Part shown: positions 43,218 to 62,977 of the stretch, piece after piece
How the letters are laid out: every line of letters starts with the position of its first letter
Numbering within the stretch: the first letter of the stretch is position 1
Source of the DNA: a bacterium
GTDB lineage: Bacteria; JAJVIF01; JAGGVT01
DNA length: 64,000 nucleotides
Direction: 5' to 3'
NCBI GenBank assembly: GCA_021157815.1
Contig: JAGGVT010000096.1
Span: 9,335 to 73,334, forward strand
Made by a program: the position numbers and the translations under genes
The notes under the pieces: generated by a model
What the model saw: only the letters and a program-made list of their open reading frames with translations
Database searches by the model: none
Told to the model about the DNA's origin: nothing

Positions 43218-44069
43218 TTAGTTTTTCACATCAATACCGAACAGTTTTGCCGTGTTTAAACCAAGAATCTTTTCTTTGTCAGATTCCGAAATATCAGCAT
43301 AAACAATTTTCCCCACCTGCGGAACAGGCGATATAAACGGCACATCGGAGCCGTAGAGAATCCGTTCAGCACCGACCTCGCGAACCATCATCTCGATTAC
43401 ATCGGGATAAAGCCGCGATGAAGCCGTATCGAGATAAACATTCGGATGCTTTTTCGCGACCTCGATTGCCTCAAAAACGCCGTCATATTCCCCGCCGGTG
43501 TGCCCAAGAATGATAATCGCATCCGGATAATTCTCGGCAACCTTGTTAAAAAGCGATGGGAGGCAGTAATCGCAAATCGGGTCGTAATACCTCATGCTGT
43601 TCCATGTGTGTATTAAAACAGGCGCTTTGTGTTTCGATGAAAACTCCCAAACCGGATTGTAACGCGCATCATCACCGGCAACCTGATCGCAATAAGGATG
43701 GATTTTAATCCCCTTGAATCCGTGCTCATCGAAACAGCGATTGAGTTCGTCATCGAGGATATCAGCGTAATTCGCATTAACTCTGGCGTATCCGACAAAC
43801 CTGTCGGGATATGATTTGACCGCCCCGGCGACAATATCATTGCCAAACGGAAGCCCGTTGCTGAACGAGCTGATAGCAACCTTGTTAATTCCGATTCTAT
43901 CCAGTCCGGCGACTATTGCACCTGCATCATCACCGCCGGGGATATAGAATCCATGGTCAGGCCCAAAATGTCCATGGCAGTCGAAGATGAAATAGTCATC
44001 TAAAGGTTTGCCATCGTTTGTTGTTTTTGTGAAGTAGTCCATTGAGTTATCCTTTTTAAATATTACCAT
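43218..44069 (-). CDS. amidohydrolase_2 (PF04909-like) metal-dependent TIM-barrel hydrolase
   Basis: FDCHGHFGP near the N-terminus, ILGHTGG, DTAS; lactonase/decarboxylase-type family. Confidence 0.7.
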   Translation of the reverse strand: MVIFKKDNSMDYFTKTTNDGKPLDDYFIFDCHGHFGPDHGFYIPGGDDAGAIVAGLDRIGINKVAISSFSNGLPFGNDIVAGAVKSYPDRFVGYARVNANYADILDDELNRCFDEHGFKGIKIHPYCDQVAGDDARYNPVWEFSSKHKAPVLIHTWNSMRYYDPICDYCLPSLFNKVAENYPDAIIILGHTGGEYDGVFEAIEVAKKHPNVYLDTASSRLYPDVIEMMVREVGAERILYGSDVPFISPVPQVGKIVYADISESDKEKILGLNTAKLFGIDVKN

Positions 44070-44093
44070 GTTTTAGCATGGTGTTATCCAGTA

Positions 44094-46670
44094 TTAATCA
44101 ATTACAACGTACCCATCCTCGAATGAATATCCAAACTCCCTGTTACTGAATATTACCACCGTTACGCCGGGTGCAAGTATTCTCGCGCCGGATATATCCG
44201 ATTCTGTTCCTATCTCGAGAAGCAGATTGTTATGTGAAATCTCAATTGCTTCTATTGTTTCAAGCGATGAGAAAATCAACATGCCGTTGTATTCCAGGTG
44301 CGATGCGTTAATCAGAAGGACATCGAAATCGGGATTGTTTGCACGGACAACATGCGCCAAATCACCCTGGAATTTGTATTTCCCAAACGTGGCCATCTTA
44401 TTGGAGTTGCCCGTTTCGAGAAACACATCCGTTCTGTCAGGCAGTTCGATTTCGTAGCCATAGTTACGCCTGTGTGCCCTATCAATCCAGTCAGTTTCAA
44501 GCGTTTTGATTTCAATATCTGGAGCGTCTTTTCCCTCGTACGGATACAGCAAAACCTGGTATTGAACAAACGGCATCCGCGCCTGATGCAGTGAGATATA
44601 CGGCGCGTCATCCTTAACGCCATCAGCCGGTGTCACCATAGGCCCGGTTTTTTCATGGATCTCAACCTCATCCGCATTAAGCGGAATAAGCGCAAGATTG
44701 GCATCATCATTGGAAGTGTCGATGCGTTTTGTTTTCTTATCAATCTTAAGTTCAGTCGGCTGGAAATGCGCAAGCCAGTCGAATGTATGATATCCGCTGG
44801 TCTGGAAACTCGCTTGATAGTACGCCGGTCCCGGCAGGAAATCGGTTATTATCCAATAGCCGGGTTTGACAAAAATCGCACGTCTATTGTGAAGCACGCC
44901 AATCCAGCGGTAGCCATCGCTCCAAGCATCCGTGAAATCGAATCTCTCGCCAGTCCACCATTGCTCGACACGGTTGTTAGTGCATTTTCGCTGGCTTCTG
45001 GAATCGACCCAAACTGTATTATGCGCGATTGTTTGCTTGTACCATCGCTTGTTTATATCCGCTTCATAAGGCCCGGTACGGCCGCATTCCGTACAAATCG
45101 GTTTGCCAAACGCGTGGATATTAAAGTTGCCGAAATCAGGATGCGAATGCCACGCCTCATCCCAGCCGAAATCAAGGAACATATACGATGAATTTTTATC
45201 CCATGAATTGCGCATCACAACCCAGTCAGAATCGGGAAGATGAATTGATTTATATGGCGGGATCTGCGCCTTGGTTTTATTGTAGGCGTCAAGCGCTTGT
45301 GCGGTATTCTCGCACTGATCATTTGCTATCCTTTCAACATCATCCGGGTACCACTCAGAAAATTCTTTCAAGATTGGATTCGCAAATTCAAGCGCGCCTT
45401 CGATTATCGTGCCCTTGATTAGATAACCGTCCGGACCAATTCCGCCATCGCCGACAGGAACACCATTGCCTGCAGGCGGCATTATCTTGACCATGGATAA
45501 ATACATCGATTCCCATTTTCTATAACAATCCTCCGGTATCTCTCTTCCCGTTTTGCGAATGATATTTACAGTCCTGCGATACTGGTCAATAACACCGGTC
45601 GCATAGTTGACCGAATTCTCGATATGAGTGCCGTCATCGTAGGTATCGGTAATCATGTGCTCCTTGAAAAGTTCCCATGAAGGCTCAATCCAATTTTCTG
45701 AATCGTTGAACTCCGGGAAATACGCTCCGATTTTAATCAGCGCCTCGCACTGGCATGTCTGCCAGTTGCCCGGCATAAAGACATCGTTGCACTTTTCCAG
45801 AAATTGCGCATGTTCAAGAATCGATTTGTAGAAATTAATATTTCTTTCCTTGTCGAGATTCAATTCACCTGTTTTTGCAAGCCATCGTTCTGTGTCGCAC
45901 ATATGAATTGCGGTACCGCCTGCGCCAAGCGTTCGCCAGTATGGCAGCCAGACAAAACCGATATACGCTTTCGGCCGTTGAGCGGGCGGACGGTACGTTT
46001 CATACCAGTGAGAGAACATCTCAAGCCACGCATCGGCGTATTTCCTGTCATTTGTGTGTATTGCCGCGCGTTCGAGAACACGCATCAACCCAAAAAGTGA
46101 ATACCTTTTTCCGGGAACGCATGCTGGGAAATCGGGATCTTTGATAATCTCGTCAGCGTCTATTACCGCGGCTTCACCCGCTTCTTTTGTAATCGGACAA
46201 AGCTTCAACTGATTCGGCCTTGGGCGTTCAGACTGATATATCAAATATTCATCCCGCGCTTTTGTGAAATCACGCGAATCAACCGCTGCCTTCACTTTCT
46301 CAAGTCCCTGATGGTTCAAATCCACGGTGGAAAAAAAATCTTTATCCGTCATTATTGGACAGGTGGGCGTGTAGTCGTATTCCGCTTTGTATCGCTCGAC
46401 AAAAGTATTTGTATAGCGGTATTTGCTAAGGAGTTTGACATCCAAATTGACATCCGAATCAAATTCAATTGACGGGTCATCCACGTACGTTATCTCCGAT
46501 GGCTCATACGGAGAAATTGCCTCCGGTGGAACAGGCACCTGCGCCATGTCAACATACGCCATCGTGTTGGGAACTTCATTCTCCCGTGAAGATTTATCAT
46601 TATCGGAATCCACTGGGCAACCACAAAAAATGAAGGATGCCATTATTAGTAGAAATGCAAATCGTGCCAT
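44094..46670 (-). CDS. heparinase II/III-like polysaccharide lyase family protein (secreted), paralog 1
   Basis: Signal/lipobox FIFCGC. WDEAWHSHPDFGNFNIHAFG matches the H.H.D...F Hepar_II_III motif. Large alpha-rich N-domain with NWQT. Start reassigned to ATG at 46670 (AGGAG RBS), 11 bp after the upstream gene stop. Confidence 0.75.
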   Translation of the reverse strand: MARFAFLLIMASFIFCGCPVDSDNDKSSRENEVPNTMAYVDMAQVPVPPEAISPYEPSEITYVDDPSIEFDSDVNLDVKLLSKYRYTNTFVERYKAEYDYTPTCPIMTDKDFFSTVDLNHQGLEKVKAAVDSRDFTKARDEYLIYQSERPRPNQLKLCPITKEAGEAAVIDADEIIKDPDFPACVPGKRYSLFGLMRVLERAAIHTNDRKYADAWLEMFSHWYETYRPPAQRPKAYIGFVWLPYWRTLGAGGTAIHMCDTERWLAKTGELNLDKERNINFYKSILEHAQFLEKCNDVFMPGNWQTCQCEALIKIGAYFPEFNDSENWIEPSWELFKEHMITDTYDDGTHIENSVNYATGVIDQYRRTVNIIRKTGREIPEDCYRKWESMYLSMVKIMPPAGNGVPVGDGGIGPDGYLIKGTIIEGALEFANPILKEFSEWYPDDVERIANDQCENTAQALDAYNKTKAQIPPYKSIHLPDSDWVVMRNSWDKNSSYMFLDFGWDEAWHSHPDFGNFNIHAFGKPICTECGRTGPYEADINKRWYKQTIAHNTVWVDSRSQRKCTNNRVEQWWTGERFDFTDAWSDGYRWIGVLHNRRAIFVKPGYWIITDFLPGPAYYQASFQTSGYHTFDWLAHFQPTELKIDKKTKRIDTSNDDANLALIPLNADEVEIHEKTGPMVTPADGVKDDAPYISLHQARMPFVQYQVLLYPYEGKDAPDIEIKTLETDWIDRAHRRNYGYEIELPDRTDVFLETGNSNKMATFGKYKFQGDLAHVVRANNPDFDVLLINASHLEYNGMLIFSSLETIEAIEISHNNLLLEIGTESDISGARILAPGVTVVIFSNREFGYSFEDGYVVID

Positions 46671-46680
46671 TGTTTTTCTC

Positions 46681-49233
46681 CTAGTTAATGATAATGAACC
46701 CATCTTGCATGTTAACTTTTTCCTGTTCGCCATTGATTATAACCTTGTTCACACTACCAGCAACTATCTTGACACCTGATAAATCGGATTCGCTTGTTAT
46801 GCTCATTTTGGCTCCATTAACACTTATTTCAAGCGCTTCAATTGCTGCAGGAGCTGAGAATATAAGGATATCATCAATCATTAGATAATCGGCATTAAGT
46901 AGAAGAAAGACTGTTTCGGATTTTTCAATGTCACTAAGAAGCGCGATATCGCCGCGGAATTCATAATCGCCGAATTTAACTTTCTTTGTTGCATCGCCGG
47001 ATTCCATGAAAATATCTTTTCGGTTTGAGAATGATATTTCATAACCAACATTCTGCCTGCTGACACGGTCAGCGAAATCCGTTTCAAGCGGCGTGATTTC
47101 AATTTCAGGCGCGACTTTTCCCTCGTAAGGAACAAGCAAAACCTGATACTGCTTGAACGCCAATCCCTCCTGATGCAGGGAAATGTAAGGAGTTTCTACC
47201 ATTCCATCCGTTGTTGACATCGGGCCTTTGCTTTTATTAACGACAATGTCCTCATGGTTAAGGGGGACAAGCGCGATATTGGCGTCAGGATTCAGCGTAT
47301 CAATACGCTTTGTTTTACTGTCAATATTAAGTTGAGTCGGCTGGAAATGCGCAAGCCAGTCGAATTCATGATATCCGCTGGTCTGGAAACTGGTTCCGTA
47401 ATAGGACGGTCCCGGCAGGAAATCCGTGATAATCCAATAGTCGGGTTTTGAAAAAATTACTCGACGGTTATGCTGAACGCCAATCCAGCGGTAGCCATCG
47501 CTCCAAGCGTCAGTGTAATCAAAATCATCCGATGTCCACCACTGCTTCAGAGTGTTAGTCGTGCATTTGCGCATGCTTCGCGAATCAATCATGACAGTAT
47601 TATGCGCGATAGTCTGCTTGTACCATCTTTTTGATACGTCAGCCTCGTAAGAACCAGTCCTGCCACATTCAGTGCAGATTGGTTTTCCGAATGCCCAAAT
47701 ATCGAACGAGCCAAAATCGGGATGCGAATGCCACGCCTCATCCCAGCCGAAATCGAAAAACATATACGGCGATTTCTCATCCCACGATTCACGCATAACT
47801 GACCAGCCTGTGTCGGGCAGGAGAACAGAGGTAAATGACGGCTCTTCTGATTTGATTTTGTTGTATGCCGCAAGCACTTCATCAGTATTGTCAAACTGCT
47901 CGTTCGCTGTTTTGATAACATCATCGGGATATCGCTCGGCGAAATATTTCATTGCAGGGTCATTAAATTCAAGTGCGCCTTTTATAATCGCGCGTTTGGT
48001 GAAACTGCCATCCGCTCCGATACCGCTATCACCGCATGGAACATAATTTCCCGTCGGCGGAACTATCTTAACAGCCCATAAATACATGGTTTTCCACTTT
48101 CGGTAGAATTCATCGGGGATAAACATCCCGAGTTTTCGTACGAGCCTGACTACAGTGCGGTATTCATCCATAACACCGGTAGCGTAACCGACTGAGTTTT
48201 CGCAGTGAGTGCCGTCGTTATAGGTTTCCTTTACCATGTGCTGTTGCGACATTTTCCACGCGTGTTCGCACCAGAATTGCGATTTTTTAAACGATGGGAA
48301 ATAACCGCCGATTTTCATAATCCCCTCGCACTGGGCGGTCTGCCAGTTGCTGGGCATGAATACATCATTGCATATATAGAGATATTCAGCATGTTCCAGA
48401 ACTGATTTATACAAATTGAATATTTTATCTTTGCACAATTTAGGGTTATCAATCTGCGAAAGCCATCGTTCAGTTTCAGGCAGGCTTCTAGCCGGGCCTG
48501 AGGCACCAAGTGTACGCCAATATGGCATCCAGATAAAGGAGATATACGTTTTGGGCCGCTGAGCTGGCGGGCGATATGTTTCATACCAGTGGTTGTACAT
48601 TTCAAGCCACGCTTCAGCATATTTAATATCATCCGTGTGGATATACGCCCGTTCGAGATAGTACATCATTCCCCATAATGAGAAGTACATCCCCGGCCTG
48701 CAATCCGGGAATTTGGGGTCTTTCATAATCTCATCCGCTTTCTCTACAGCAGCCTCGCCTGCTTCTTTTGTAACAACCCGTTCTTTAAGCTGGTATTTTT
48801 TATCGCGCTTCGCCTGATATGACAAATACTCATCCCGCGCCTTTTGGAAATCACCAGACGTAACCGCCGCCTTAACTTTCTCAAGGCCTGGATAGTCCAG
48901 ATTAACCGCCTCGAAAAATTCCCTGTCCGACATCTCCGGCTTGGTGGGAGTATAGCCGTATTTCGCTTTCCACTTCGCCACAAATTCGTTGGTGTAGCGA
49001 TACTTGCTGAAAAGTTTTACATCCATGTTCCAGTCGGAATCGAGTTCAATCAACGGCTCATCCACGTAGGTGATTTCCGTTGGTTCAAATGGGGACAATG
49101 CCTCCGGTGGAACAGCTACAATCTGCCCGCCATCGGCATAATCCATCGTGTAGTGAACATCCTTTTCCCTTGATAGTGAAAATCCGAAGAAAATAATCGA
49201 TGCAATAAAAAGGGCTATAGCTGTTCGAGTCAT
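46681..49233 (-). CDS. heparinase II/III-like polysaccharide lyase family protein (secreted), paralog 2
   Basis: Signal peptide; WDEAWHSHPDFGSFDIWAFG; about 60% identical to paralog 1 along the full length. Confidence 0.75.
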   Translation of the reverse strand: MTRTAIALFIASIIFFGFSLSREKDVHYTMDYADGGQIVAVPPEALSPFEPTEITYVDEPLIELDSDWNMDVKLFSKYRYTNEFVAKWKAKYGYTPTKPEMSDREFFEAVNLDYPGLEKVKAAVTSGDFQKARDEYLSYQAKRDKKYQLKERVVTKEAGEAAVEKADEIMKDPKFPDCRPGMYFSLWGMMYYLERAYIHTDDIKYAEAWLEMYNHWYETYRPPAQRPKTYISFIWMPYWRTLGASGPARSLPETERWLSQIDNPKLCKDKIFNLYKSVLEHAEYLYICNDVFMPSNWQTAQCEGIMKIGGYFPSFKKSQFWCEHAWKMSQQHMVKETYNDGTHCENSVGYATGVMDEYRTVVRLVRKLGMFIPDEFYRKWKTMYLWAVKIVPPTGNYVPCGDSGIGADGSFTKRAIIKGALEFNDPAMKYFAERYPDDVIKTANEQFDNTDEVLAAYNKIKSEEPSFTSVLLPDTGWSVMRESWDEKSPYMFFDFGWDEAWHSHPDFGSFDIWAFGKPICTECGRTGSYEADVSKRWYKQTIAHNTVMIDSRSMRKCTTNTLKQWWTSDDFDYTDAWSDGYRWIGVQHNRRVIFSKPDYWIITDFLPGPSYYGTSFQTSGYHEFDWLAHFQPTQLNIDSKTKRIDTLNPDANIALVPLNHEDIVVNKSKGPMSTTDGMVETPYISLHQEGLAFKQYQVLLVPYEGKVAPEIEITPLETDFADRVSRQNVGYEISFSNRKDIFMESGDATKKVKFGDYEFRGDIALLSDIEKSETVFLLLNADYLMIDDILIFSAPAAIEALEISVNGAKMSITSESDLSGVKIVAGSVNKVIINGEQEKVNMQDGFIIIN

Positions 49234-49294
49234 TTTTATGTCTCCTTAACAATTATGAGACAGGCTATAAAAGCCTCTCCCGATGGCATTACAA

Positions 49295-50032
49295 TTATGA
49301 AACCCCTAACAGTTTCAACAAATTGCCGCCGGCTATCATCGACTTCTCCTCATCAGATATCCCGGCGTATTGCACCGCCATCACTGATGGCTCAGGATTG
49401 AAAAGCGGAATTGACGTTCCGAACAGAAGTCGCCTTGCTGAGAATTTCGCGCAGACATCCTCTATTCCACCATGCAATTGGAACATTGATGTATCAAGAT
49501 ACAGATTCGATGTCTCAGATAAAAGCGCGTAAATCAGGCGGCTGAATCTAAACGGCGCTCCCGTTAAAACAACAGCAAGTCCTGTATGTTGTTTGCACAA
49601 TCCATATATCTGATCGACGCTTGTTTCGTTATAATCGATAAACAGCGGGATGGAACGCTCCTGCAGAACACTTAGCAGAGTACCGCAACTCCATTCCGAC
49701 AACGACCAGTTATGAGTTTTTGGAAAAACACGCACGGTGCGAACGCCATTTTCCAGCATTGATTCAACAATCTCCACCGGTGGAGGCATTTCACCTGTGT
49801 GATGCGGCATTACAGCCCAGCATGGATACAGGTTGCCATAATCCGCGACCTCGTCAAGAATCCAATTGTTGCCGTAAGTCGGGCTGTATTCCTTCGATGA
49901 AATATGATAAACAAGTGCACCATCAATACCGGCTTGTTTCATCACTTTTGCCAGTTCTTTTGCGTTGTCGATATAACCCGGCAGTGGTACGGATAATTTG
50001 CCTATACAGCAATTGGCATCGATAAATTGCAT
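49295..50032 (-). CDS. amidohydrolase_2-family TIM-barrel hydrolase
   Basis: MQFIDANCCIGK N-terminus, pattern and size like neighbouring PF04909-type proteins. Confidence 0.65.
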   Translation of the reverse strand: MQFIDANCCIGKLSVPLPGYIDNAKELAKVMKQAGIDGALVYHISSKEYSPTYGNNWILDEVADYGNLYPCWAVMPHHTGEMPPPVEIVESMLENGVRTVRVFPKTHNWSLSEWSCGTLLSVLQERSIPLFIDYNETSVDQIYGLCKQHTGLAVVLTGAPFRFSRLIYALLSETSNLYLDTSMFQLHGGIEDVCAKFSARRLLFGTSIPLFNPEPSVMAVQYAGISDEEKSMIAGGNLLKLLGVS

Positions 50033-50101
50033 AATAACCTCTTGTTGTTATAACATCATTTTAAATCTTTGAAGCACCACGCTAAAGCATGGTGATATTT
50101 C

Positions 50102-51499
50102 TTACGAATTCTCAATTATCGCCAATCCATAGAGCGTGGCAAGATTGCGAAAGTCCTCTTCCAAATCGCCGTAGAATGATACTCGATGCCATCCGAAGTT
50201 GCACTCGACATTCCAGCTGTTCAGTATCGCTTTCGCATCGGGAACCTCAACAGCGATTTTAGTCCGGCAAGCCCAGTCGATATCGACATTTCCAACCACC
50301 ACTCCCTTGTGAAGCGCGAGTTTTTTATCCACCGGATGCAATTTAACTGTTGTCATTGGAAGGCCAAGCCGCGCTTTGACCTGCACGGATGCTCCTTTGC
50401 CGCATTCCGCATGGCTTCTGATAACATACGGCATGGGTGGCTCATCTGGAATCATTCTGTTCGAGCAAACACAATGAGCATAAATTACCTGATTGGATGC
50501 GGTATCAATCACGGGGTCGGAAACAAATCCGGGAGCGCCGGTTAAATAGCGCCCCATCAGATTTGTCAGGCTTGAGAAAATATCCGCCTCGCAGATTCCC
50601 ATAAGACCATCGTTCATCAACTGAAAAAATGCCATGCACGGGTATCCGGGAAATTTATCGCGATAAACATAGTTCAAACAATCGGTGGAAACACAGGTCG
50701 CGCCGACATCCTCCATCGCGCTTTTTAAAGCGAGATACATAACAGCCGCCTGCAGCATTGTTTCATCATCCGGTTCAACAACCTTCTCCGCTTCTTTTTC
50801 CCATTTTGCCGCTATTTTCTTCGCTTCGGAATTGTCAACATCGTCGCAGTATTTCAGAAGTTCCTGCCCCGGTTTTAGGATTATCTCTGTTCCGAAAATA
50901 TCCTTAATGACTTTCTCCTCGCCCGGTCTCATGCCCCATTCAGATACAGCATCCATGTAGTCAAGGATTTTCGTTTCACGCATTTTACGCATGACTGTTA
51001 TTAAATGCAGCGCGCGCCTTGTGTCGTTTGAATCCGATGAACTCACCAGAATCGCCGGAAGGTTATTGCGTTTAACAAAACTGTTGCAGTGCAGAAACAT
51101 GCCGTCGCCGGCATATAAATTATTCAGAACAACGGTTGGTTTGCCTGTGGACAGGATATCGAATTCACAGGAGCAACCGGGTATGCACAGCGAGACAACC
51201 AGAACGCCATCAGATTGCCTTACACCATCCTGAATGTGTTTGGGAAAATCATTTAGAGATTCAGGCCCTCGGCTTTCAAGCACCTGATTAACATACCCTC
51301 CGATTTCGCATGTTCCCTTATCGTGACACGGCACCATATCGCCGCCGGTGAATTCGAATTCATCGCCGAATTCCTCGTTGAGTTTAGCCATCCATTCTTT
51401 GCTGTGAGTTTCGGGATCAAGTTGCGCGTTGGGCCATCCAGGAACGCCTATCGGTTTTTTCTCCCCTAGAAACGCTGTGTATATGCGAGTTTTTTCCAT
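50102..51499 (-). CDS. hypothetical protein, possibly sugar isomerase-like (function unresolved)
   Basis: Clear 465-aa ORF in operon context, not secreted; weak resemblance to the L-fucose/L-arabinose isomerase-type fold only. Confidence 0.55.
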   Translation of the reverse strand: MEKTRIYTAFLGEKKPIGVPGWPNAQLDPETHSKEWMAKLNEEFGDEFEFTGGDMVPCHDKGTCEIGGYVNQVLESRGPESLNDFPKHIQDGVRQSDGVLVVSLCIPGCSCEFDILSTGKPTVVLNNLYAGDGMFLHCNSFVKRNNLPAILVSSSDSNDTRRALHLITVMRKMRETKILDYMDAVSEWGMRPGEEKVIKDIFGTEIILKPGQELLKYCDDVDNSEAKKIAAKWEKEAEKVVEPDDETMLQAAVMYLALKSAMEDVGATCVSTDCLNYVYRDKFPGYPCMAFFQLMNDGLMGICEADIFSSLTNLMGRYLTGAPGFVSDPVIDTASNQVIYAHCVCSNRMIPDEPPMPYVIRSHAECGKGASVQVKARLGLPMTTVKLHPVDKKLALHKGVVVGNVDIDWACRTKIAVEVPDAKAILNSWNVECNFGWHRVSFYGDLEEDFRNLATLYGLAIIENS

Positions 51500-51534
51500 T
51501 TGTGTATGTCCTTTTTACTTTCCTGAGAGATAAA

Positions 51535-52635: not shown

Positions 52636-53524
52636 CCGTATTTCTTAATGTGCCAATGCCTTCAATGGTCGCCTCGACAACATCACCGACTTCAAGCGCT
52701 GAGATTCCCTCCGGAGTGCCTGTCATAATCATGTCACCCGGCAGGAGAGTCATGTGCTTTGAGATGTATGACATCAAACTGGGAATATCGAACACCATTT
52801 TGGCGGTAGTTGATTTCTGCCGGGTTTCGCCGTTTACTTTCAATTCCATCTCGAGATTCTGTGCGTCATCGACCGCATCTTTGGGAACAACAAAGGGTCC
52901 AAGCGGAGTGAATGTGTCGAAACTTTTCGAGCGAAGCCACGGATTAACAATCTTCATGTCCCTTTCCTGCATGTCCCTTGCGGAGATATCGTTGCCGATT
53001 GTGTATCCCGCGATGTGATCATAAGCATCGGATGGTGAAATGTCCTTCGCGGTTTTTCCAATTATAATCACAAGTTCGATCTCATGGTCAAGGCGATTAA
53101 CAACGGATGGATATACAATTTCGCCTTCGTGAGGAAGCATCGATGATGTTACCTTGTCAAAAATAATCGGCTCATCGGGAACCGATAGATTACTCTCCTC
53201 CGCATGCGCCCTGTAATTCCTGCCCAGCGCGAGTATTTTCGATGGTTGAATCAGCGGAATCTCATATTTGAAATTTTCTTTGACTGTGAAACTATCCACC
53301 AGATTGTGTTTCTTGAGGAAATCGCACACTTCGGTAAATATTCCCAGTTTGAAAATGCCTTGTTTAATCATCATGTCCATCGACTGGCAGATTAGCGCGA
53401 TTTGCGTTGCTTTCCTGTCGGCTAGTTCATAAGCCAGTCTGGCGCGTTGGAAATCAATAACAGCATCATCCAGCATCACGCCGATTTTCATTTCGTTGCC
53501 GGTTTTCAATCTGAATACCTTCAT
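52619..53524 (-). CDS. fumarylacetoacetate hydrolase (FAH)-family hydrolase/hydratase
   Basis: NRLDHEIELVIIIGK, GYTIGNDISARD, LLPGDMIMTGTPEG; 17-bp overlap with the MR/MLE gene. Confidence 0.9.
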   Translation of the reverse strand: MKVFRLKTGNEMKIGVMLDDAVIDFQRARLAYELADRKATQIALICQSMDMMIKQGIFKLGIFTEVCDFLKKHNLVDSFTVKENFKYEIPLIQPSKILALGRNYRAHAEESNLSVPDEPIIFDKVTSSMLPHEGEIVYPSVVNRLDHEIELVIIIGKTAKDISPSDAYDHIAGYTIGNDISARDMQERDMKIVNPWLRSKSFDTFTPLGPFVVPKDAVDDAQNLEMELKVNGETRQKSTTAKMVFDIPSLMSYISKHMTLLPGDMIMTGTPEGISALEVGDVVEATIEGIGTLRNTVVSGG

Positions 53525-53620
53525 TGTGTTATTCCTTTTTGTTTATTTTGCATGTAATCCGGGAGCTCTTCCCAAGGACCCCGGCGAAGGGACGCCGGGT
53601 TACAATTCACTAATTTTCCA

Positions 53621-53736
53621 ACTTACTAACCTGCCAACTTACTAACCTGCTAACCTGCTAACTTGCTAACCTACTAACCTGCTAACTTACTAACCTGCTA
53701 ACTTACTAACCTACTAACCTGCTAACTTACTAACCA
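53621..53736. repeat. 8-bp tandem repeat (CTAACYTR)n, about 14 units, beginning at the stop codon of 53730..54350
   Basis: Same unit as 23803-23906; preceded by ctaaTTTTCCAAC and a G/C hairpin (53560-53615). Confidence 0.85.
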
Positions 53737-54350
53737 ACCATCGCTACCACTCTTGCGGGAGCGCCATCGACAGCGCGCACTTTCAATGGCAGCGCGAGAA
53801 GCTTGATTTTATCGGCGTTTACAGCATCCAGATTCGCCAGGTTTTCAATCAGAAGCCTGTCCGCGCCAAGTACAATCAGATGCACCTCTGCGCTGAGCGG
53901 AAGATCGCTGGCGATGAATTTCGCTCCCTTGTCAACGAGCATCTGCGCGGTTTCAGGATCAAGAATTGGGAAATCCTTATAAAAGTTTCCCGTGTTCCAC
54001 TGCTTGTACCAGCCTGTGTTTATCAGGATTCCGACATCGGGCGTGATTTCCAGGTGCGACAGCATGCCGGGTGTGATATGCGAATTTTCGCCGATTCCAT
54101 CCAGTTTGCATACAACACAATCGCTGACAAGCATGTTCAGCGGGACTTCATCAATTGTCATCGCACCTTCGATAAAATGCGCGGGAGCGTCAATGTGAGT
54201 CCCCGTATGTGTCGCCATTTCAATTTTGTGAACCTGGCATTTGTCCCGTTCATACGAGCCTGTCTCCTCGCATGAAAAGGAGGCATGATAGTCGCCCCAA
54301 AAACGAGTCATGCCGTAATACAAATCTACGCTTAAATCGATAAGTTCCAT
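53730..54350 (-). CDS. cyclase-family protein (kynurenine formamidase-like, PF04199)
   Basis: HTGTHIDAPAHF signature. Confidence 0.85.
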   Translation of the reverse strand: MELIDLSVDLYYGMTRFWGDYHASFSCEETGSYERDKCQVHKIEMATHTGTHIDAPAHFIEGAMTIDEVPLNMLVSDCVVCKLDGIGENSHITPGMLSHLEITPDVGILINTGWYKQWNTGNFYKDFPILDPETAQMLVDKGAKFIASDLPLSAEVHLIVLGADRLLIENLANLDAVNADKIKLLALPLKVRAVDGAPARVVAMVG

Positions 54351-54362
54351 TTCATTTCTCCA

Positions 54363-55205
54363 TCATGATAATTTCCCGAGATATTCATTCATCTTCTCGA
54401 CATACTGCGGAAACGCTTCTTCCGGTTCAGGCAAATCAGGCTGCCAGACCTTTTCCCATTCGTACGAAAGATAGCCATCATATCCCATCGATGCAAGTAT
54501 TTTCAAGGCTTTTTGAATCGGGATATCGCCTTCTCCGATAAACACCAGCTTTGCATCTTTTCCGTCAAGGATTGAATCTTTCATGTGAACGTTTTTTATA
54601 TATGGAGCAAGCAGATTTGCGGACTCATCAATTGGCTCGCCTGTCCAGAAACAGTTGCTTATATCCCAGACTACACCTACCGAATCGTGATTCGTTTTTT
54701 TCATTACTGCGGCAACAGCTTTACCGGTGAGGAAACTGTCGTGCGTTTCAAGCGCGACAATGACTCCTTTTTCCGCAGCGAAATCGCCAAGCTGGATTAG
54801 ATAAGATGCCAGTTGATTCGCGCCGTCCTCAAAAGAGATTCCATCCGGTATTGAACCACCGAAAACTCGAACCAAAGGCGCGCCAAGTTCGCTTGCCAGA
54901 GTGATATAATCCCGCGCTTCATCAACGCTATTTTGCAATTTCTCCTGTTCCTTATGAAAAAAGCTGGCGGATGAATCGACGCTTATAATTTCAATTCCGG
55001 CATCGTTGAACATCGCGCGTGTCTTTTCAATATTGCCGCTGGAGAAATCCGGCAGATTGCGAATGTCGAGTTCATTGTCAATCCCGCGTAATTCCATGCC
55101 TGAAAAGCCATACAGTCTGGCGGATTCAATCGCTCTTTCAAGCGACCATGCGGGACATCCCAATGTGCTGAATGATAATTTCATGGTTTTATCCTTTATT
55201 CGCAA
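54363..55205 (-). CDS. sugar phosphate isomerase/epimerase (xylose isomerase-like TIM barrel)
   Basis: MKLSFSTLGCP..W.....ESARLYGF.GMELRG N-terminus typical of the AP-endonuclease-2/xylose-isomerase-like TIM family. Confidence 0.8.
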   Translation of the reverse strand: MRIKDKTMKLSFSTLGCPAWSLERAIESARLYGFSGMELRGIDNELDIRNLPDFSSGNIEKTRAMFNDAGIEIISVDSSASFFHKEQEKLQNSVDEARDYITLASELGAPLVRVFGGSIPDGISFEDGANQLASYLIQLGDFAAEKGVIVALETHDSFLTGKAVAAVMKKTNHDSVGVVWDISNCFWTGEPIDESANLLAPYIKNVHMKDSILDGKDAKLVFIGEGDIPIQKALKILASMGYDGYLSYEWEKVWQPDLPEPEEAFPQYVEKMNEYLGKLS

Positions 55206-55217
55206 CGCTGTTGAAAT

Positions 55218-55985
55218 TTAATACTTCCCCGCAAGCCATTTTAACATCTGGCCCCAGAACTGCGGATAGTGCTCCCAGTCCTTGAAATCACCCGCCCAGT
55301 GCGGAGCGAAATCAGATGCGAAAGTTGCCGTCCTGCCTTTCTTATATTCCCAGCATGTAATAAACGGATCGCCGTCATATTCCGCAAGCAGTTTTGCGCC
55401 ATCCTTGAGTTTCACCTGATTGTATCCGCACAGCGTGAATTCCGCACTATCCCAGGGTATCCCGGATGTTATCGGATGTTCCTTATCCACAACATTGAAG
55501 ATGAAACCGTCGGTTGCCTCGATTCGATCATCGTAAGGAGAAACCGAAACCGGCAGAATTTCCTCGACAGGAGTGTTGTGCCATCTGCCGATTGCGTTGA
55601 TTCCCGCAAACGAAAGATACCCGCCGCTCATGACAAATCCGCCTCCTTTCTCGACAAACTCCTTCACCATTTTAACCCTGTCAGGTCCCAGCGGATATTC
55701 ATACGGCGGCTTCAATCCTGCGTAGAATATCATCGAGTTGTAGCCGACATCGCTGAAAATCAGGACATCCCATTTCTCAAGTTCTTCCATCGATTTGGGA
55801 AACTGGTATGGAACATCGTGAGGATTGATATGCCTCAGTTCGATATATGGCAGTGTCGCCATGGCATCCCTGAAAAAATGAGCGTTGTCGTTGTAGTTAG
55901 CCTGCTCGAAGGAATCAGCTCCGACAATATATTTGCTTAGAACTATTTCAGAGTCGCCGATATAAAGCACTTTGATTTTTTCCAT
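55218..55985 (-). CDS. ThuA-like / class I glutamine amidotransferase-like fold protein
   Basis: About 250 aa, VLIFSDVGYNS..GGGFVMSGGYLSF pattern. This family commonly neighbours xylose-isomerase-like TIM-barrel genes (weak, by architecture). Confidence 0.45.
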   Translation of the reverse strand: MEKIKVLYIGDSEIVLSKYIVGADSFEQANYNDNAHFFRDAMATLPYIELRHINPHDVPYQFPKSMEELEKWDVLIFSDVGYNSMIFYAGLKPPYEYPLGPDRVKMVKEFVEKGGGFVMSGGYLSFAGINAIGRWHNTPVEEILPVSVSPYDDRIEATDGFIFNVVDKEHPITSGIPWDSAEFTLCGYNQVKLKDGAKLLAEYDGDPFITCWEYKKGRTATFASDFAPHWAGDFKDWEHYPQFWGQMLKWLAGKY

Positions 55986-56003
55986 TTTCGTTTGTCCTTT
56001 TTA

Positions 56004-56167
56004 CGTAGCGCTGACTTCCTGGGGCTGTTGAAAAAGCCCGTTTTGTCCCAGACCGTAGGGGCAACTCTCCGTGGTTGCCCTGTATTTATGCCAATATTTA
56101 GGGTAGGCACAGAGACCTACCCCCTACATTCAGCCCTTTTTCAACAGCCCCGGATGCCAGCGCTACG
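56004..56167. repeat. Long inverted-repeat element (about 33-bp arms) with internal G/C hairpins
   Basis: cgtagcgctgacttcctggggctgttgaaaaag ... ctttttcaacagccccggatgccagcgctacg; inner gggcaac..gttgccc and gggtagg..cctaccc. Confidence 0.5.
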
Positions 56168-56176
56168 AATCGTTAT

Positions 56177-56965
56177 CTATTTAAACAATTTAATCGCATT
56201 ACTCGATAATATCAACTCGCGGTCACGCTCACTTATTTTAGCATTCAACACCTTCAACAGCGATGATTTAACATACTGAAACGGAGCATTGCTGCCGAAT
56301 AACATTTTGTCCGCACCGAAATCCTCAACCGCTCTGACAACCACCTCGACCGCTCCCGGGCTTGCGTGGCGTCCCTGCATTCTGCCTATGTCGAAATGCC
56401 AGTTGTCGAGTTTCGCAAGTCGTTCTCTGACTGAGCTGAGTTCGCTGTATGACGCTCCGCTTATAACAAATCTCACTTTCGGGAATTTGATGATTGTATC
56501 AACCACTTTGCCCATATCAAGCGGTGGCACTTTCATCAGCCAGTGATGCTGGCGTTCATCCTCTACTCTAACCGCAAGCGCGACGGGGATATTTTTATTT
56601 TCCGCTGCTTTGATTAATGCAATCAGGCATTTATCTGTCAGGCCGTATCCGTGATATGTCGGAAACAGGCGCAATCCTTTGAATTTCATTTTATCGAAAC
56701 AGGTTTCAAAATCATGCTCCCAGCCCTCGAAAGCGGGATTTATCACGGCAAACGGAACAACCATAGATTGATATTTTTTATAAGCGTCATAAACCTCAAG
56801 GTTACCATCCATGCAATCCTTTGCGAGTATTGATGTAATCGGATAAACAACCGCCTGATCGATTCCCTCCCTTTCCATCAACTCTATAAACTTATCCGCA
56901 GATGCGTATTTCAATTTTCTAAACGGCCATGTGCCAATTCCTGTGAAGGTATCTATAATCATCAC
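56177..56965 (-). CDS. amidohydrolase_2-family TIM-barrel hydrolase
   Basis: Size and pattern match neighbouring PF04909-like genes; 4-bp overlap with upstream gene. Confidence 0.65.
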   Translation of the reverse strand: MMIIDTFTGIGTWPFRKLKYASADKFIELMEREGIDQAVVYPITSILAKDCMDGNLEVYDAYKKYQSMVVPFAVINPAFEGWEHDFETCFDKMKFKGLRLFPTYHGYGLTDKCLIALIKAAENKNIPVALAVRVEDERQHHWLMKVPPLDMGKVVDTIIKFPKVRFVISGASYSELSSVRERLAKLDNWHFDIGRMQGRHASPGAVEVVVRAVEDFGADKMLFGSNAPFQYVKSSLLKVLNAKISERDRELILSSNAIKLFK

Positions 56966-57714
56966 AAATCACCCCCCAGAAGACGGACAGCGTTATCGTA
57001 GAGAATCAGTTTTTTCTGCTCGTCGGTGATATCAGCTCCCTCGACTTTCCCAAGGTTTGTCCAGAAATCGATATCCGGCAGATCTGTTCCGAAGAAGATT
57101 CTCTCAGCGCCTAATTCCTCGACCGCCATTTCAATCGCGCCGCAATCGACAATGCTTCCGCAGATATCGATTAGAACATTCGGCAAGCCGCGAATCGCCT
57201 TGATTCCCCGCTGCCAGTCGCCGCCGATATGAGCCATGATTATTTTCACATTCGGAAATTGCTTTGCGAGAAAAGCGACATCCGCCGGTTTGGATTCGCC
57301 ATCAATGCATCCGGTAATTTTGAACCATGTGTGCTGCAGTATGGGGATATTCAGCGATTCGGCTTTCTCCATGATTGGAATATAGCGCGGGTCAGTGCAT
57401 ACACAGCCGCATTCGAACTTGATTCCAGTCATGCCGTATTCGTTAATCGCCCTGTCAATCTCATCGAGCGATTCCCGCTCATGTTCGGGATTCACATAAA
57501 CCCAGCCGTGAACGTAACCCGGTTCTTTTTTCATCCATTCATAAACACGGGCGTTATCCTCACGAAACTGCTCGGGAGTTGGCTTGTAAACGCCATCAGA
57601 TGGCTCAAGACACGAAACAACGATTTTCTCAACTCCAGCCGATTTCACCAAATCGAGCGTATGCTGAAAGCTCTCATCATCGCATAAATGCACATGCATA
57701 TCGATTATCTTCAT
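56962..57714 (-). CDS. amidohydrolase_2-family TIM-barrel hydrolase
   Basis: MKIIDMHVHL N-terminal metal-binding HxH, IMAHIGG, DLPD. Confidence 0.75.
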   Translation of the reverse strand: MKIIDMHVHLCDDESFQHTLDLVKSAGVEKIVVSCLEPSDGVYKPTPEQFREDNARVYEWMKKEPGYVHGWVYVNPEHERESLDEIDRAINEYGMTGIKFECGCVCTDPRYIPIMEKAESLNIPILQHTWFKITGCIDGESKPADVAFLAKQFPNVKIIMAHIGGDWQRGIKAIRGLPNVLIDICGSIVDCGAIEMAVEELGAERIFFGTDLPDIDFWTNLGKVEGADITDEQKKLILYDNAVRLLGGDL

Positions 57715-57728
57715 TGTTCAACCTGCCT

Positions 57729-57906
57729 GCTAATTGTAACCCAGCATCCCTTCACTGGGGTTTGCGTAAAATTGCCGATAATTCCCTCGGTTAATGAGAA
57801 CCCGTGCTACCAGTTTTGCTAATCGTAACCCGGCATCCCTTTGCCGGGGTTATGCGTGAATTAACGCCGTTTTCCCGGGAAATGGATTCCCGTACTACCA
57901 GTTTTC
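57729..57906. repeat. Tandem duplication of an about 90-bp unit carrying a GTAACCCRGCATCCCTT..GGGGTT hairpin
   Basis: 57729-57818 and 57819-57906 align with about 75% identity. The second copy ends in CCAGTTTTCCAAC, joined to the 8-mer array. Confidence 0.7.
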
Positions 57907-57907
57907 C

Positions 57908-58016
57908 AACCTGCTAACCTGCTAACTTACTAACCTGCTAACTTACTAACCTGCTAACTTACTAACTTACTAACCTGCTAACTTACTAACTTACTAACCT
58001 GCTAACTTATTAACCT
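57908..58016. repeat. 8-bp tandem repeat (CTAACYTR)n, about 13 units, overlapping the stop codon of 58010..60520
   Basis: Same unit and same TTTTCCAAC junction as the arrays at 23.8 kb and 53.6 kb. Confidence 0.85.
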
Positions 58017-60520
58017 GTCACAAGATAACTGCCATCGGGAAGTGTGATTGTCATTTTTCCCTTGAAATCACCATTGACCGATGCGCCGTTGTTTGTAAAC
58101 TGAATCTCGACCCAGTCCATTTCATTCGAGCAATACGCAATAACCTTTCCATCGCGTTTAAGGCATGTTCCGCCGACAAGTAGAATCGAACTAACAACTC
58201 CGTCTTTTTCTCTGATTAACGCCATTTCACCATCGAAAGAGAAATCGCCGTATTTGCGAAACGCGCTTTTCTCATCAACAACGTAATAATAATCCGCCTT
58301 GAGGGATTCGAGGTAGTAATCGATTCCATCAGGCGATGTGATTTTCAAACCCTTGCATCGCCAGGCATCATCGCCCATATCGAGAGTTTCGACTTTGATA
58401 TCCGGGGCGACTGTTCCCTTGTATGGATAAATAACAACCTCGTAATCGACCGGCAAATCGCCCTCTCTTTGATAGCCGATATACGGCGCATCATCCACTT
58501 CACCATCCGGAGTAACCATCCAGCCCGTGGATTGATTAACAATGAGAGTTTCAGGATTTAACGGCACCACCAGAACATTCACATCGGGATTGTTTGTGCG
58601 AATCGCTTTCGATTTCTCATCAATTGCCAGTTCAGTCGGCTGGAAATGTGCCAGCCATTCACATTCGTGATAACCGCTGGTCTGACACATTTTTTCAGTC
58701 AGGTTGTCAGTGAGAATCCAATAGTTGGGTTTAACAAACGTAATTTTTCTACGGCTATACGCGCCAAGATATTTGTAACCATCATGGATTGCGTTTGCAT
58801 AATCGGCTGTCGATGATGTAACCCATGTATCGCAGATTCCGGATGTAATCTTGCGCTGGCTCATCCCGTTGATTGTTACAAGGTTATGCGAGATTGTTTC
58901 CTTATACCACAATTTGCACCTGTCAGTCTGATATCCGCCAGCAAGCCCGCAGTCCGTAATAAGCGGCTTGCCATAAGCGAAAATGCTGAATCCAAGGCCG
59001 TCGCGATGGCAGTGCCACGGCTCGTTTGAGCCATAATCGAAAAGCAGATAACGGGCATCCCTGCTCCAGTCGTCGCGCATTATCGCCCAGCCTGTGTCAG
59101 GCAGATTCACGGATGTATAATCCGGTTCCTTCGGTACGATTGCTTTTAATTCAGCGATAACCTCATCAGCGCCATCACCGAAAAGATCTTTTGCCCTTTC
59201 TCTTAATTTATCAGGATAATCCTTCACAAAATATTTGAACTCAGGGCATGGGAATAAAAGAGCGCCATCAATAAGATATGGAACTGCGAAATTCTCCGCT
59301 CCCATAGCACTGTCGCCGACAGGCGCCAGATTAAGAATCGGCGAATATACTTTTATTGTCCATTCCTGCGCATGTTTAAGTTTCGGCTCAAGCCAGTCGG
59401 GTTCCTCCAAACCAGCTATACGCACCAGTTTAAGAATCTTTCGAAAAAACTTTATAACAGCATTGTTATAACCTGCCGCTCTCTCGAAATAACCGCCATC
59501 GGGCATCACACCAAGATCCACGTGTTTTAGAAGGTAATTCCACGCGAAATCAATCCATTGCCGGGACTCCTTGAATTCAGGATAATTTATCCCGGCCTCA
59601 AGAAGGTTAAGCATCTGAAGAAGTTGAATATTACCGGCGCGGTATCCGGGATTGACCGACATTAAAAATTGCGCATGCTCAACAACTGATTTATACAGTA
59701 CAATCCTTTCATCAACCGGAATGTCATTGTATTCAATTCCAGTCAGAATATCATTGAAACATGAGAAAGTGTGAATTCTGTAACCCGCCAGATGGGAATC
59801 CCATGGATTGTTAATAAACGATGGTGAAAGCCAGATTTTCGGAGCGCCCTCAGGCGGTCGGACTGTCTCATACCAGAATGAAAACATATCCATCAAACCA
59901 TGGAGATATTTCATATCGCCTGTGTAACGATAAGCATAGTAAAGATGTGATAGCCAGTTCCACCACGCATCCTTTGAGCCATTGCCAAGTTTTTCCCTGT
60001 CCCACGGATGATTCGGGAAATCCGGACTATTGAGAAGCTCATCGGACCTTTCAACATAAATATTCTTTCTCGATGGATTAAGCGTGCCAGGGTCGATATG
60101 GACAATTTCAGGACGATTCTTAAAATAATCCGCAAGTTCAAATTTCGCCTTTTTGTAATCCCCCGCCTCTACTGCTGCCTTCACTGATTCAAGACCGTCA
60201 TGGCTAAGGTCAATCACCGAAAACAACTCCTCATCGGCCATGACATCCGCGACTGGATGGTAGTTGTATTTTACAAGCCATCTCTCAAGATACAGGTCAG
60301 ACAGTTTGATTTCTGAAAATGTCTTGTAGTGCAGATTGAGTTCAGCTTCCAGCTTAACTGACGGCTCATCCACAACGGTGATTGATTCATCGGATTGAGC
60401 ATACCCGGTTGTGAACATTGAAACTACACAAGCTACCAGAACAAGCATCCATGATTTCCACATATCTCCACACCTCGTATTTTGATGGCACAGTAAAATA
60501 AATAAACCCTGAAAAAACAT
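58010..60520 (-). CDS. heparinase II/III-like polysaccharide lyase family protein (secreted), paralog 3
   Basis: Signal peptide MWKSWMLVLVACVVSMFTTGYA (start probably internal, about 60463). H.H.D...F motif as SNEPWHCHRDGLGFSIFAYG. Collinear with paralogs 1 and 2. Confidence 0.75.
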   Translation of the reverse strand: MFFQGLFILLCHQNTRCGDMWKSWMLVLVACVVSMFTTGYAQSDESITVVDEPSVKLEAELNLHYKTFSEIKLSDLYLERWLVKYNYHPVADVMADEELFSVIDLSHDGLESVKAAVEAGDYKKAKFELADYFKNRPEIVHIDPGTLNPSRKNIYVERSDELLNSPDFPNHPWDREKLGNGSKDAWWNWLSHLYYAYRYTGDMKYLHGLMDMFSFWYETVRPPEGAPKIWLSPSFINNPWDSHLAGYRIHTFSCFNDILTGIEYNDIPVDERIVLYKSVVEHAQFLMSVNPGYRAGNIQLLQMLNLLEAGINYPEFKESRQWIDFAWNYLLKHVDLGVMPDGGYFERAAGYNNAVIKFFRKILKLVRIAGLEEPDWLEPKLKHAQEWTIKVYSPILNLAPVGDSAMGAENFAVPYLIDGALLFPCPEFKYFVKDYPDKLRERAKDLFGDGADEVIAELKAIVPKEPDYTSVNLPDTGWAIMRDDWSRDARYLLFDYGSNEPWHCHRDGLGFSIFAYGKPLITDCGLAGGYQTDRCKLWYKETISHNLVTINGMSQRKITSGICDTWVTSSTADYANAIHDGYKYLGAYSRRKITFVKPNYWILTDNLTEKMCQTSGYHECEWLAHFQPTELAIDEKSKAIRTNNPDVNVLVVPLNPETLIVNQSTGWMVTPDGEVDDAPYIGYQREGDLPVDYEVVIYPYKGTVAPDIKVETLDMGDDAWRCKGLKITSPDGIDYYLESLKADYYYVVDEKSAFRKYGDFSFDGEMALIREKDGVVSSILLVGGTCLKRDGKVIAYCSNEMDWVEIQFTNNGASVNGDFKGKMTITLPDGSYLVTG

Positions 60521-62777: not shown

Positions 62778-62977
62778 TTTGACTTTCTCGATGGTTTTTG
62801 CTATATAACATATAACTTGTGGATGCAAGGGAAGATGGTTAAAGTCCATCGCGGTCCAGCCACTGTGTTGGGCACATTATTGAAGTCCAGATAATTGCCC
62901 TAAGCCAGAAAACCAATTCACAGGTTGAATGTACAGCTTCTTGGATTGGGCTTCGCATTCATTGGATATTCTCCTTT

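Follow-up and report, generated by a model that had tools for sequence, protein, structure and literature searches.

Which polymer is cut by the products of a cluster of heparinase II/III-like genes on the bacterial contig JAGGVT010000096.1 (assembly GCA_021157815.1), and by what route are the fragments used? We analysed a stretch of 64,000 nt of this contig (positions 9,335 to 73,334 of the forward strand; hereafter the window), in which 14 co-directional genes lie on the minus strand between positions 41820 and 60520, with gaps of ≤ 295 bp between them (Table 1). They encode three lyase-like proteins (LyA1, LyA2 and LyB), four Amidohydro_2 proteins (AH2a–AH2d), a xylose-isomerase-like TIM barrel protein, a GATase1_like protein, a protein of 465 aa, a DegT-family aminotransferase and a trio comprising a cyclase-family protein, a fumarylacetoacetate hydrolase (FAH)-family protein and an enolase-superfamily enzyme of the mandelate racemase/muconate-lactonizing enzyme (MR/MLE) type. 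A preliminary description of this DNA had seen here a catabolic island in which sugars released by the lyases are oxidized through a sugar-acid pathway. A conserved locus with cytoplasmic enzymes of carbohydrate type bore out the broader view, a catabolic island around uronate-polymer lyases, whilst the pathway itself was not supported. Using gene content, fold and family placement, conservation of catalytic residues, export signals and synteny, from which we infer the substrate class and each of the reactions, we consider it probable, with moderate confidence, that this is an uncharacterized, non-canonical utilization locus for a polymer of uronic acid and amino sugar in uncultured Planctomycetota of sediments (Phycisphaerae-related). 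Literature searches returned nothing on this combination of genes, nor on lactonases of the cyclase family.

The gene cluster is real and conserved. Synteny was assessed from gene calls on related contigs and from tblastn searches in which every protein of the window was run against 30 loci. This revealed a core of ten genes, in the order LyB–AH2d–AH2c–GATase1_like–TIM barrel–isomerase (the 465-aa protein)–AH2b–LyA–AH2a–DegT, in metagenome-assembled genomes (MAGs) of at least eight other species at 55–82 % identity; as the gene order is repeated across so many species, chance is far from sufficient to explain the arrangement. Contigs identical or nearly identical to that of the window are present in several metagenomes. 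The relatives that bear the core are labelled Planctomycetota or Phycisphaerae, and a scan of 185,579 species genomes yielded 15 loci, every one of them from MAGs. DegT follows AH2a in every complete locus and is the last gene of the core. Two variants were distinguished. In variant I (the window, L016/L026, L010/L018 and L011) the cyclase–FAH–MLE trio is inserted between the TIM barrel and isomerase genes, and in two genomes of this group a dihydroorotate (DHO)-dehydrogenase-like Fe-S protein is encoded after DegT. In variant II (L006/L007/L024, L012/L020, L021, L023/L025, L027 and L029) the trio is absent; genes for an SSF symporter and for another DegT lie upstream of LyB, and a NAD-dependent epimerase-family protein and a 358-aa protein are encoded downstream. 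A CN_hydrolase is present as well in some loci. A more distant locus from Planctomycetales (L030), the lyase of which is 30 % identical, also has a pair of Amidohydro_2 genes, one intact and one lacking metal ligands, adjoining the lyase gene, and encodes an HpcH/HpaI aldolase.

As the preliminary description had noted, three paralogues carry an H.H.D...F motif (WHSHPDFGSF, WHSHPDFGNF and WHCHRDGLGF) and two of them are encoded in tandem. The tandem copies, LyA1 and LyA2, are 60 % identical to each other, whilst LyB shares 35–37 % identity with either; the duplication of LyA is confined to the window lineage and L016. The clade is a narrow one, with ∼23 protein clusters at ≥ 36 % identity and next matches at ≤ 28 %, and an extra paralogue in L011 bears a CBM9 domain. 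Amongst solved structures, the best sequence match of LyA1 was the heparinase III 4mmh of polysaccharide lyase (PL) family 12 (E-value 5.9e-28); the PL12 chains 4mmh, 5jmd and 4fnv gave E-values of 6e-28 to 9e-18, compared with 7e-4 for PL21 and 1.5e-3 for PL15. An AlphaFold (AF2) model of the lyase, built with database homologues (31 sequences), had a predicted local distance difference test score (pLDDT) of 89.5 and displays an alpha/alpha toroid plus an antiparallel beta-sandwich, nearest to PL12 structures: the top five Foldseek matches were all heparinase III (including 5jmf, 4mmh and 4fnv; E-values 2e-30 to 3e-28), followed by PL39, PL17, PL35, PL15, PL40, dermatan sulfate epimerase, PL21 and PL33.

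The catalytic residues of the PL12 enzyme HepC are Tyr294, His424 and Asn240 (PMC12088678), and in an HMMER alignment N296, Y350 and H502 of LyA1 align to Asn240, Tyr294 and His424, respectively. These three residues are invariant across nine locus lyases (alignment A1); in a wider alignment (A4) of 31 homologues, the most distant of which are 18 % identical, N296 and Y350 are still invariant and H502 is kept in ≥ 90 %. The catalytic Tyr, His and Asn, the loss of which the preliminary description had named as evidence against its reading, are thus retained. Bit scores against the HepC equivalog model NF045573 were 131, 131 and 112 for the three lyases and did not reach the cut-off of 700. Secretion, which had also been proposed, agrees with sequence prediction: hydrophobic N-termini (Kyte–Doolittle window > 2.1) occur in all three lyases and in no other protein of the locus, for which the highest value was 1.33. 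The N-terminus of LyA2 is lipoprotein-like (FIFCGC), the predicted signal peptide of LyB ends in ...GYAQ/S, and lipobox-like N-terminal sequences are found in several orthologues. On these grounds of sequence and predicted fold, LyA and LyB are credible exported uronate-polymer lyases, with PL12 heparinase III as their nearest relatives.

The four Amidohydro_2 proteins, which had been taken for lactonases, fall into two kinds. AH2a (HGH, HTW, GHTGG, GSD) and AH2d (HVH, HTW, AHIGG, GTD) keep their metal ligands, whilst AH2b (DANCC, FID, TGA, GTS) and AH2c (DTFTG, ALA, SGA, GSN) have lost all five canonical ones (HxH, His, His, Asp). This loss is conserved in orthologues (L006, L010, L011 and L012) and in the distant locus L030. 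AH2a and AH2b bracket the LyA genes and AH2d adjoins AH2c, the start of which overlaps the AH2d stop; since each intact gene is thus neighboured by a ligand-less one, and two of the genes overlap, heteromers are suggested, in which AH2b and AH2c would be non-catalytic partner subunits of their intact paralogues. The best PDB matches of AH2a were 3nur and the ACMS (2-amino-3-carboxymuconate 6-semialdehyde) and gamma-resorcylate decarboxylases. A profile of the intact proteins likewise placed the uncharacterized 3nur first, followed by gamma-resorcylate, 5-carboxyvanillate (LigW), ACMS, dihydroxybenzoate and salicylate decarboxylases, the hydratase LigJ and the hydrolase LigY, and at E ≤ 0.01 none of the matched chains was a named lactonase. 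By sequence similarity, therefore, AH2a and AH2d fall in the decarboxylase/hydratase wing of the family and not with lactonases.

For the 465-aa protein, previously left unassigned, weak NCBIfam matches to sulfoquinovose isomerase and L-arabinose isomerase were found, and a profile of its family matched AraA 7cwv with an E-value of 1e-4. Its AF2 model (pLDDT 90.9) was closest in Foldseek to AraA 4r1p (E-value 1.3e-21, template modelling score 0.72) and then to FucI; all 41 matches at E ≤ 0.001 were AraA, FucI or D-arabinose isomerase structures. Residues E304, D328, H342 and H438 are invariant in the family, and E304 aligns with the glutamate of the AraA EGD motif. By their spacing, the four residues are candidate counterparts of E306/E333/H350/H450, the metal-binding and catalytic residues of AraA. 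Judged by the predicted structure, this 'hypothetical' protein is a sugar isomerase of the L-arabinose/L-fucose isomerase fold. The family (∼435–465 residues) is widespread in MAGs of anaerobes, in varied gene contexts. We attempted to derive a substrate from the contexts of homologues with 40–50 % identity and rejected this, as these were too heterogeneous for anything to be transferred: neighbours were NAD-kinase-like and radical SAM genes, with AP_endonuc_2 and glucuronoyl esterase genes once each. A plasmid search with the isomerase gave a single weak match, to a Bacteroides fucose isomerase.

The remaining core proteins are placed less precisely. The TIM barrel protein has a candidate metal-ligand tetrad (E153/D181/H207/E251, ORF numbering) and matches characterized epimerases and isomerases weakly. 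The protein at first called ThuA-like is instead a GATase1_like protein: it scored 18.9 against ThuA (threshold 33.4) and 227 bits against PF07090, and the ThuA label was rejected. Its PDB matches were 2gk3 and 3soz (STM1381, uncharacterized; E-value 2e-48), and it is without a nucleophile cysteine at the elbow. Proteobacterial homologues encoded on plasmids sit in loci with ribose-type ABC-transporter, kinase and phosphotriesterase-like genes, contexts that fit carbohydrate metabolism in general and nothing specific. The best NCBIfam models for DegT were PseC, LegC and WecE, all with scores far below cut-offs; the protein retains the family lysine (SLQMNK) and resembles nucleotide-sugar aminotransferases.

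The trio of variant I gave the preliminary description two of its pathway enzymes. The MR/MLE protein, taken to be a sugar-acid dehydratase, scored 288.9 bits against the muconate cycloisomerase model TIGR02534 (cut-off 334.95, not reached), whereas acid-sugar dehydratase models gave ≤ 133 bits, about half of the MLE-subgroup scores. In the PDB it matched 2p88 (230 bits; deposited as a generic MR/MLE family member, and presumably an N-succinyl-amino-acid racemase), the Ala-Glu epimerase 1jpm (227 bits) and (chloro)muconate cycloisomerases within 190–230 bits. Its motifs comprise KxK, Asp, Glu, Asp, a strand-6 Lys (NIKIMK) and a CEMIGP sequence like that of chloromuconate cycloisomerase. Going by these scores and motifs, the protein belongs to the muconate-cycloisomerase (MLE) subgroup rather than with the acid-sugar dehydratases; a dipeptide epimerase was considered and rejected, the DxD motif being absent. 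The FAH protein is a generic member of its family: it scored 229 bits with HpaG-C and 204 bits with NF053535 (2,4-didehydro-3-deoxy-L-rhamnonate hydrolase; cut-off 500), both below cut-off. The cyclase scored 85 bits with the arylformamidase model TIGR03035 (cut-off 223) and keeps the metal motif HxGTHxDxPxH as HTGTHIDAPAH, so that an amidase or hydrolase role is plausible. About half of the loci orthologous to this one (L006/L024, L012/L020, L021 and L025) have none of the three genes, yet keep the remaining locus. The trio is accordingly a lineage-variable add-on and not the backbone of a pathway.

These results bear directly on the route first proposed, in which sugars released by the lyases and by BNR proteins encoded in the window would be oxidized non-phosphorylatively, with Amidohydro_2 as the lactonase, the MR/MLE protein as an acid-sugar dehydratase and the FAH-family protein as the hydrolase of a 2,4-diketo-3-deoxy acid. 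Such a route requires two dehydrogenases, a sugar 1-dehydrogenase and a 2-keto-3-deoxy-acid 4-dehydrogenase, and Pfam detected a dehydrogenase domain in none of the 14 genes. Nor do the BNR genes have a counterpart beside the locus in any of the other genomes sampled, and a link between the two was rejected for this lack of synteny. There are points in favour, namely the score of the FAH protein on the rhamnonate hydrolase model (sub-cut-off as it is), the presence in L030 of an HpcH/HpaI keto-deoxy-acid aldolase, and the precedent of an oxidative uronate pathway in which Amidohydro_2 and enolase superfamily enzymes work together as Gli and Gci (PMC6353982). Nevertheless, with no dehydrogenases, an enolase of the wrong subgroup, Amidohydro_2 proteins that resemble decarboxylases and hydratases (two of the four being ligand-less), dispensable MLE and FAH genes that are not co-inherited with the locus, and an unconserved BNR link, we regard this pathway as improbable. 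The labels 'dehydratase' and 'lactonase' should not be transferred to the proteins of the locus.

The preliminary description had also named a grouping of the enzymes with aromatic-degradation rather than sugar-acid families as evidence against its reading. The nearest named relatives of the MLE, FAH (HpaG), Amidohydro_2 and cyclase (arylformamidase) proteins do all come from aromatic ring-cleavage pathways; every score lies below the curated cut-off. One could accordingly suppose that the cytoplasmic genes (ACMSD-, muconate-cycloisomerase-, HpaG- and formamidase-like) form a module for unsaturated, aromatic-type or amino-acid-derived acids that merely adjoins the lyases. We think this very unlikely: because oxygenase genes are absent from the locus, as are those for CoA-dependent ring reduction, because the scores are below equivalog cut-offs, and because Amidohydro_2 and lyase genes are intermingled in an order that holds across genomes, and even in L030, aromatic catabolism is not favoured. 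Moreover, MLE, FAH and cyclase are dispensable, whereas the core of lyases and Amidohydro_2 proteins is not. By analogy, the resemblance may be one of chemistry, as the substrates of the aromatic-pathway relatives, alpha,beta-unsaturated carboxylates and beta-diketo acids, call for the same chemistry as 4,5-unsaturated uronates and their 4-deoxy-5-keto derivatives would.

We therefore return to utilization of a uronic-acid and amino-sugar polymer, for which the following course may be envisaged. Once exported, the three PL12-like lyases, which represent two orthologous types (LyA and LyB), would cut a uronic-acid polymer by beta-elimination; this polymer is probably glycosaminoglycan-like and includes an amino sugar. 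The unsaturated oligosaccharides would then be imported, a step for which the SSF symporter of sister loci is a candidate, and processed by a cytoplasmic core other than the GH88/KduI/KduD/KdgK/KdgA set. Pairs of metal-competent and ligand-less Amidohydro_2 proteins may hydrate or decarboxylate the alpha,beta-unsaturated carboxylate of the 4,5-unsaturated uronate, a reaction that we propose because their nearest relatives carry out such chemistry. The AraA/FucI-fold aldose–ketose isomerase would take the KduI-type step, and the putatively metal-dependent TIM barrel protein might serve as a keto-sugar isomerase or epimerase. DegT would handle the amino sugar, and an amidase-type enzyme (the cyclase or CN_hydrolase) may assist it in some loci, whilst the cyclase–FAH–MLE trio and the extra genes of variant II could represent alternative, lineage-specific endings.

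A more specific version of this course would be a largely redox-neutral route independent of glycoside hydrolases. Here, Amidohydro_2 heteromers would hydrate or decarboxylate the C4=C5–COO− unit in place of GH88/GH105, and the AraA-fold isomerase and the TIM barrel protein would reposition the carbonyl, so that a 2,4-diketo-3-deoxy acid is formed. In variant I this acid would be split by FAH into pyruvate and a C3 acid, and DegT would take the amino group off the partner sugar. As a complete sequence of steps we consider it unlikely to be correct.

Several observations count against utilization of such a polymer. None of the locus enzymes is orthologous to a characterized one, and all NCBIfam equivalog scores are far below cut-off. 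A glycoside hydrolase, a kinase and an aldolase are absent from the window locus, so that no path into central metabolism is apparent from it. In general, enzymes of the DegT family work on nucleotide sugars in biosynthesis. Furthermore, dermatan sulfate epimerase 6hzn matches the lyase model in Foldseek (E-value 2.7e-16), and a LyA1 homologue of 24 % identity (P0151; L034, 9001–11487) is encoded amid Wzy, flippase, glycosyltransferase and PIG-L genes; given this biosynthetic neighbourhood, the Hepar_II_III fold also serves outside catabolic loci. Uronate C5-epimerases share both the fold and the catalytic residues of the lyases (PMC8006597). It could thus be argued that the Hepar_II_III proteins are non-catabolic and modify or trim the cell's own envelope polysaccharide or exopolysaccharide, as C5-epimerases or chain-length lyases, with DegT and the NAD-dependent epimerase of sister loci, both of classic biosynthetic families, making an amino sugar. 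However, a glycosyltransferase, flippase, polymerase or nucleotidyltransferase gene was found within 10 kb of none of the core-bearing loci, and the SSF symporter, the CBM9-bearing lyase paralogue and the isomerase-, amidohydrolase- and FAH-type enzymes of sister loci are typical of catabolism. A role in envelope modification is therefore improbable, and we continue to favour utilization of an external polymer.

Planctomycetota are regarded as major degraders of acidic glycans in anoxic sediments, and few of the steps that follow their lyases have been described. In this setting, a rare and divergent clade of PL12-like lyases is paired with a fixed set of enzymes that matches no described uronate pathway. 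The locus supplies candidates for a replacement of unsaturated-uronyl hydrolase, for an AraA-fold isomerase of KduI type and for a catabolic DegT aminotransferase, and presents a naturally occurring case in which ligand-less Amidohydro_2 partners have been conserved. Even if the locus should prove ordinary, its annotation is corrected, with an AraA/FucI-fold isomerase in place of a 465-aa 'hypothetical' protein and without the 'dehydratase' and 'lactonase' labels.

The genes of the locus are listed in Table 1. Pfam strongly supported all of the families that the preliminary description had named, except for the ThuA-like and 465-aa proteins, and the DegT gene lies outside the island as first drawn, which began at 43218. 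The ORFs in the list are the longest possible, so that some starts are too far upstream when compared with gene calls on identical contigs; by these calls the likely starts are ∼60463 for LyB, ∼46670–46703 for LyA2, 52617 for MLE and 55184 for the TIM barrel protein. Scans for promoters and terminators gave counts no better than those for shuffled sequence.

Table 1. Genes of the lyase locus in the window, by position (longest ORFs)
Gene product	Position	Strand	Assignment
DegT/DnrJ/EryC1-family pyridoxal phosphate-dependent aminotransferase	41820..43061	-	Pfam PF01041, E 1.7e-85
Amidohydro_2 AH2a, ligands intact	43218..44069	-	Pfam E 3e-33
Lyase LyA2	44094..46733	-	Hepar_II_III_N + Hepar_II_III_C
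Lyase LyA1, PL12-like, predicted to be exported	46681..49233	-	Hepar_II_III_N + Hepar_II_III_C
Amidohydro_2 AH2b, ligand-less	49295..50032	-	Pfam E 2.5e-7
465-aa protein, predicted AraA/FucI-fold isomerase	50102..51499	-	Zero Pfam matches; fold from AF2 + Foldseek
MR/MLE enolase-superfamily enzyme, MLE subgroup	51535..52635	-	Pfam MR_MLE_N + MR_MLE_C
FAH-family protein (FAA_hydrolase)	52619..53524	-	Pfam E 2e-72
Cyclase/arylformamidase-family metallohydrolase	53730..54350	-	Pfam PF04199, E 1.5e-25
Xylose-isomerase-like TIM barrel protein (AP_endonuc_2)	54363..55205	-	Pfam PF01261, E 4e-39
GATase1_like protein	55218..55985	-	PF07090, 227 bits
Amidohydro_2 AH2c, ligand-less	56177..56965	-	Pfam E 6e-22
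Amidohydro_2 AH2d, ligands intact	56962..57714	-	Pfam E 5e-28
Lyase LyB, first gene of the locus	58010..60520	-	Hepar_II_III_N + Hepar_II_III_C

Repeats were observed both within the locus and elsewhere in the window. Arrays of ∼110 bp, built from ∼13 copies each of an 8-nt unit (GTTAGCAG/GTTAGTAA, minus strand), lie at 57908–58017, 53620–53735 and 23801–23907, where they start at or just past the stop codon of the minus-strand LyB, cyclase and Peptidase_C11 genes. A 21-mer of the array had 23 matches, with none expected by chance. The arrays recur in contigs of the same population (L001–L004) and are absent from all other loci, including a relative of 86–95 % identity. The gap between LyB and AH2d (57716–57904) is filled by two direct repeats of ∼88 nt (AAACTGGTAGYACGGG ... 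GGGATGCYGGGTTACRATTAGCA), the predicted RNA fold of which was not better than that of shuffled sequence (z = −1.5). A cobalamin riboswitch (RF00174; 34 bits, gathering score 31.5) was detected at 62804–62935 on the plus strand, just downstream of an acyl-CoA dehydrogenase gene (61605–62777). A tandem array of ∼12 copies of a 25-nt unit adjoins an IS200/Y1-type transposase gene (26082–26377 and 26472–27053). Within ORF 1142–6268, the 1708-aa product of which has fibronectin type III domains, positions 3350–4186 are occupied by a tandem repeat of 267 nt (3.1 copies, 69 % matching), which probably codes for repeated domains. Finally, ORF 16808–20323 on the minus strand encodes a large Ser/Thr protein kinase (1171 aa) that contains an AAA-like region together with many TPR repeats.

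How, then, does the locus compare with known systems? The closest counterparts of its lyases are the PL12 heparinase III enzymes HepC of Pedobacter heparinus (4MMH) and BT4657 of Bacteroides thetaiotaomicron (5JMD/4FNV), which are likewise exported and likewise have an alpha/alpha toroid at the N-terminus and then a beta-sandwich. Of all PL families this one matches the locus lyases best, with equivalents of Asn240, Tyr294 and His424 kept, at ∼17–21 % identity over the structural alignment. His241 and His295 of HepC are replaced by Trp and Ala and, unlike heparinase III, the locus lyases have an extra N-terminal region of ∼100–190 residues and a C-terminal beta domain of ∼130 residues.

Beyond the lyases, the locus was compared with the canonical uronate pathways (as described in PMC6353982). 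With the unsaturated-uronate route of Bacteroides heparin/heparan sulfate polysaccharide-utilization loci and of pectin and alginate loci it shares the logic that lyases are exported and that 4,5-unsaturated uronates are then converted in the cytoplasm, whilst Pfam detected none of the canonical families (GH88/GH105, KdgF, KduI/DhuI, KduD, KdgK and KdgA) amongst the locus genes; an AraA/FucI-fold isomerase, a TIM barrel protein, a GATase1_like protein and the Amidohydro_2 pairs are found in their place. The non-phosphorylative L-fucose/L-rhamnose pathway, which employs an Amidohydro_2 lactonase, an MR-subgroup dehydratase, SDR dehydrogenases and an FAH hydrolase, has the Amidohydro_2, enolase and FAH superfamilies in common with the locus. 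It differs from it in its dehydrogenases, in the subgroup of its enolase (MLE in the locus) and in its lactonase, and in the locus the trio is unconserved. In the Agrobacterium oxidative uronate pathway (Udh–Gli–Gci–KdgD), an amidohydrolase-superfamily enzyme and an enolase-superfamily cycloisomerase act on uronate-derived lactones (PMC6353982); unlike that pathway, the locus is without uronate dehydrogenase and KdgD, and amongst the PDB matches listed for the MR/MLE and Amidohydro_2 proteins none bears the name of a galactarolactone enzyme. As for the AraA/FucI superfamily, which includes the sulfoquinovose isomerase SftI, the 465-aa protein has 13–15 % identity to its structures and no Pfam match and belongs to a separate family; in its predicted structure it matches the fold over its full length, with an AraA-like spacing of acidic and His residues.

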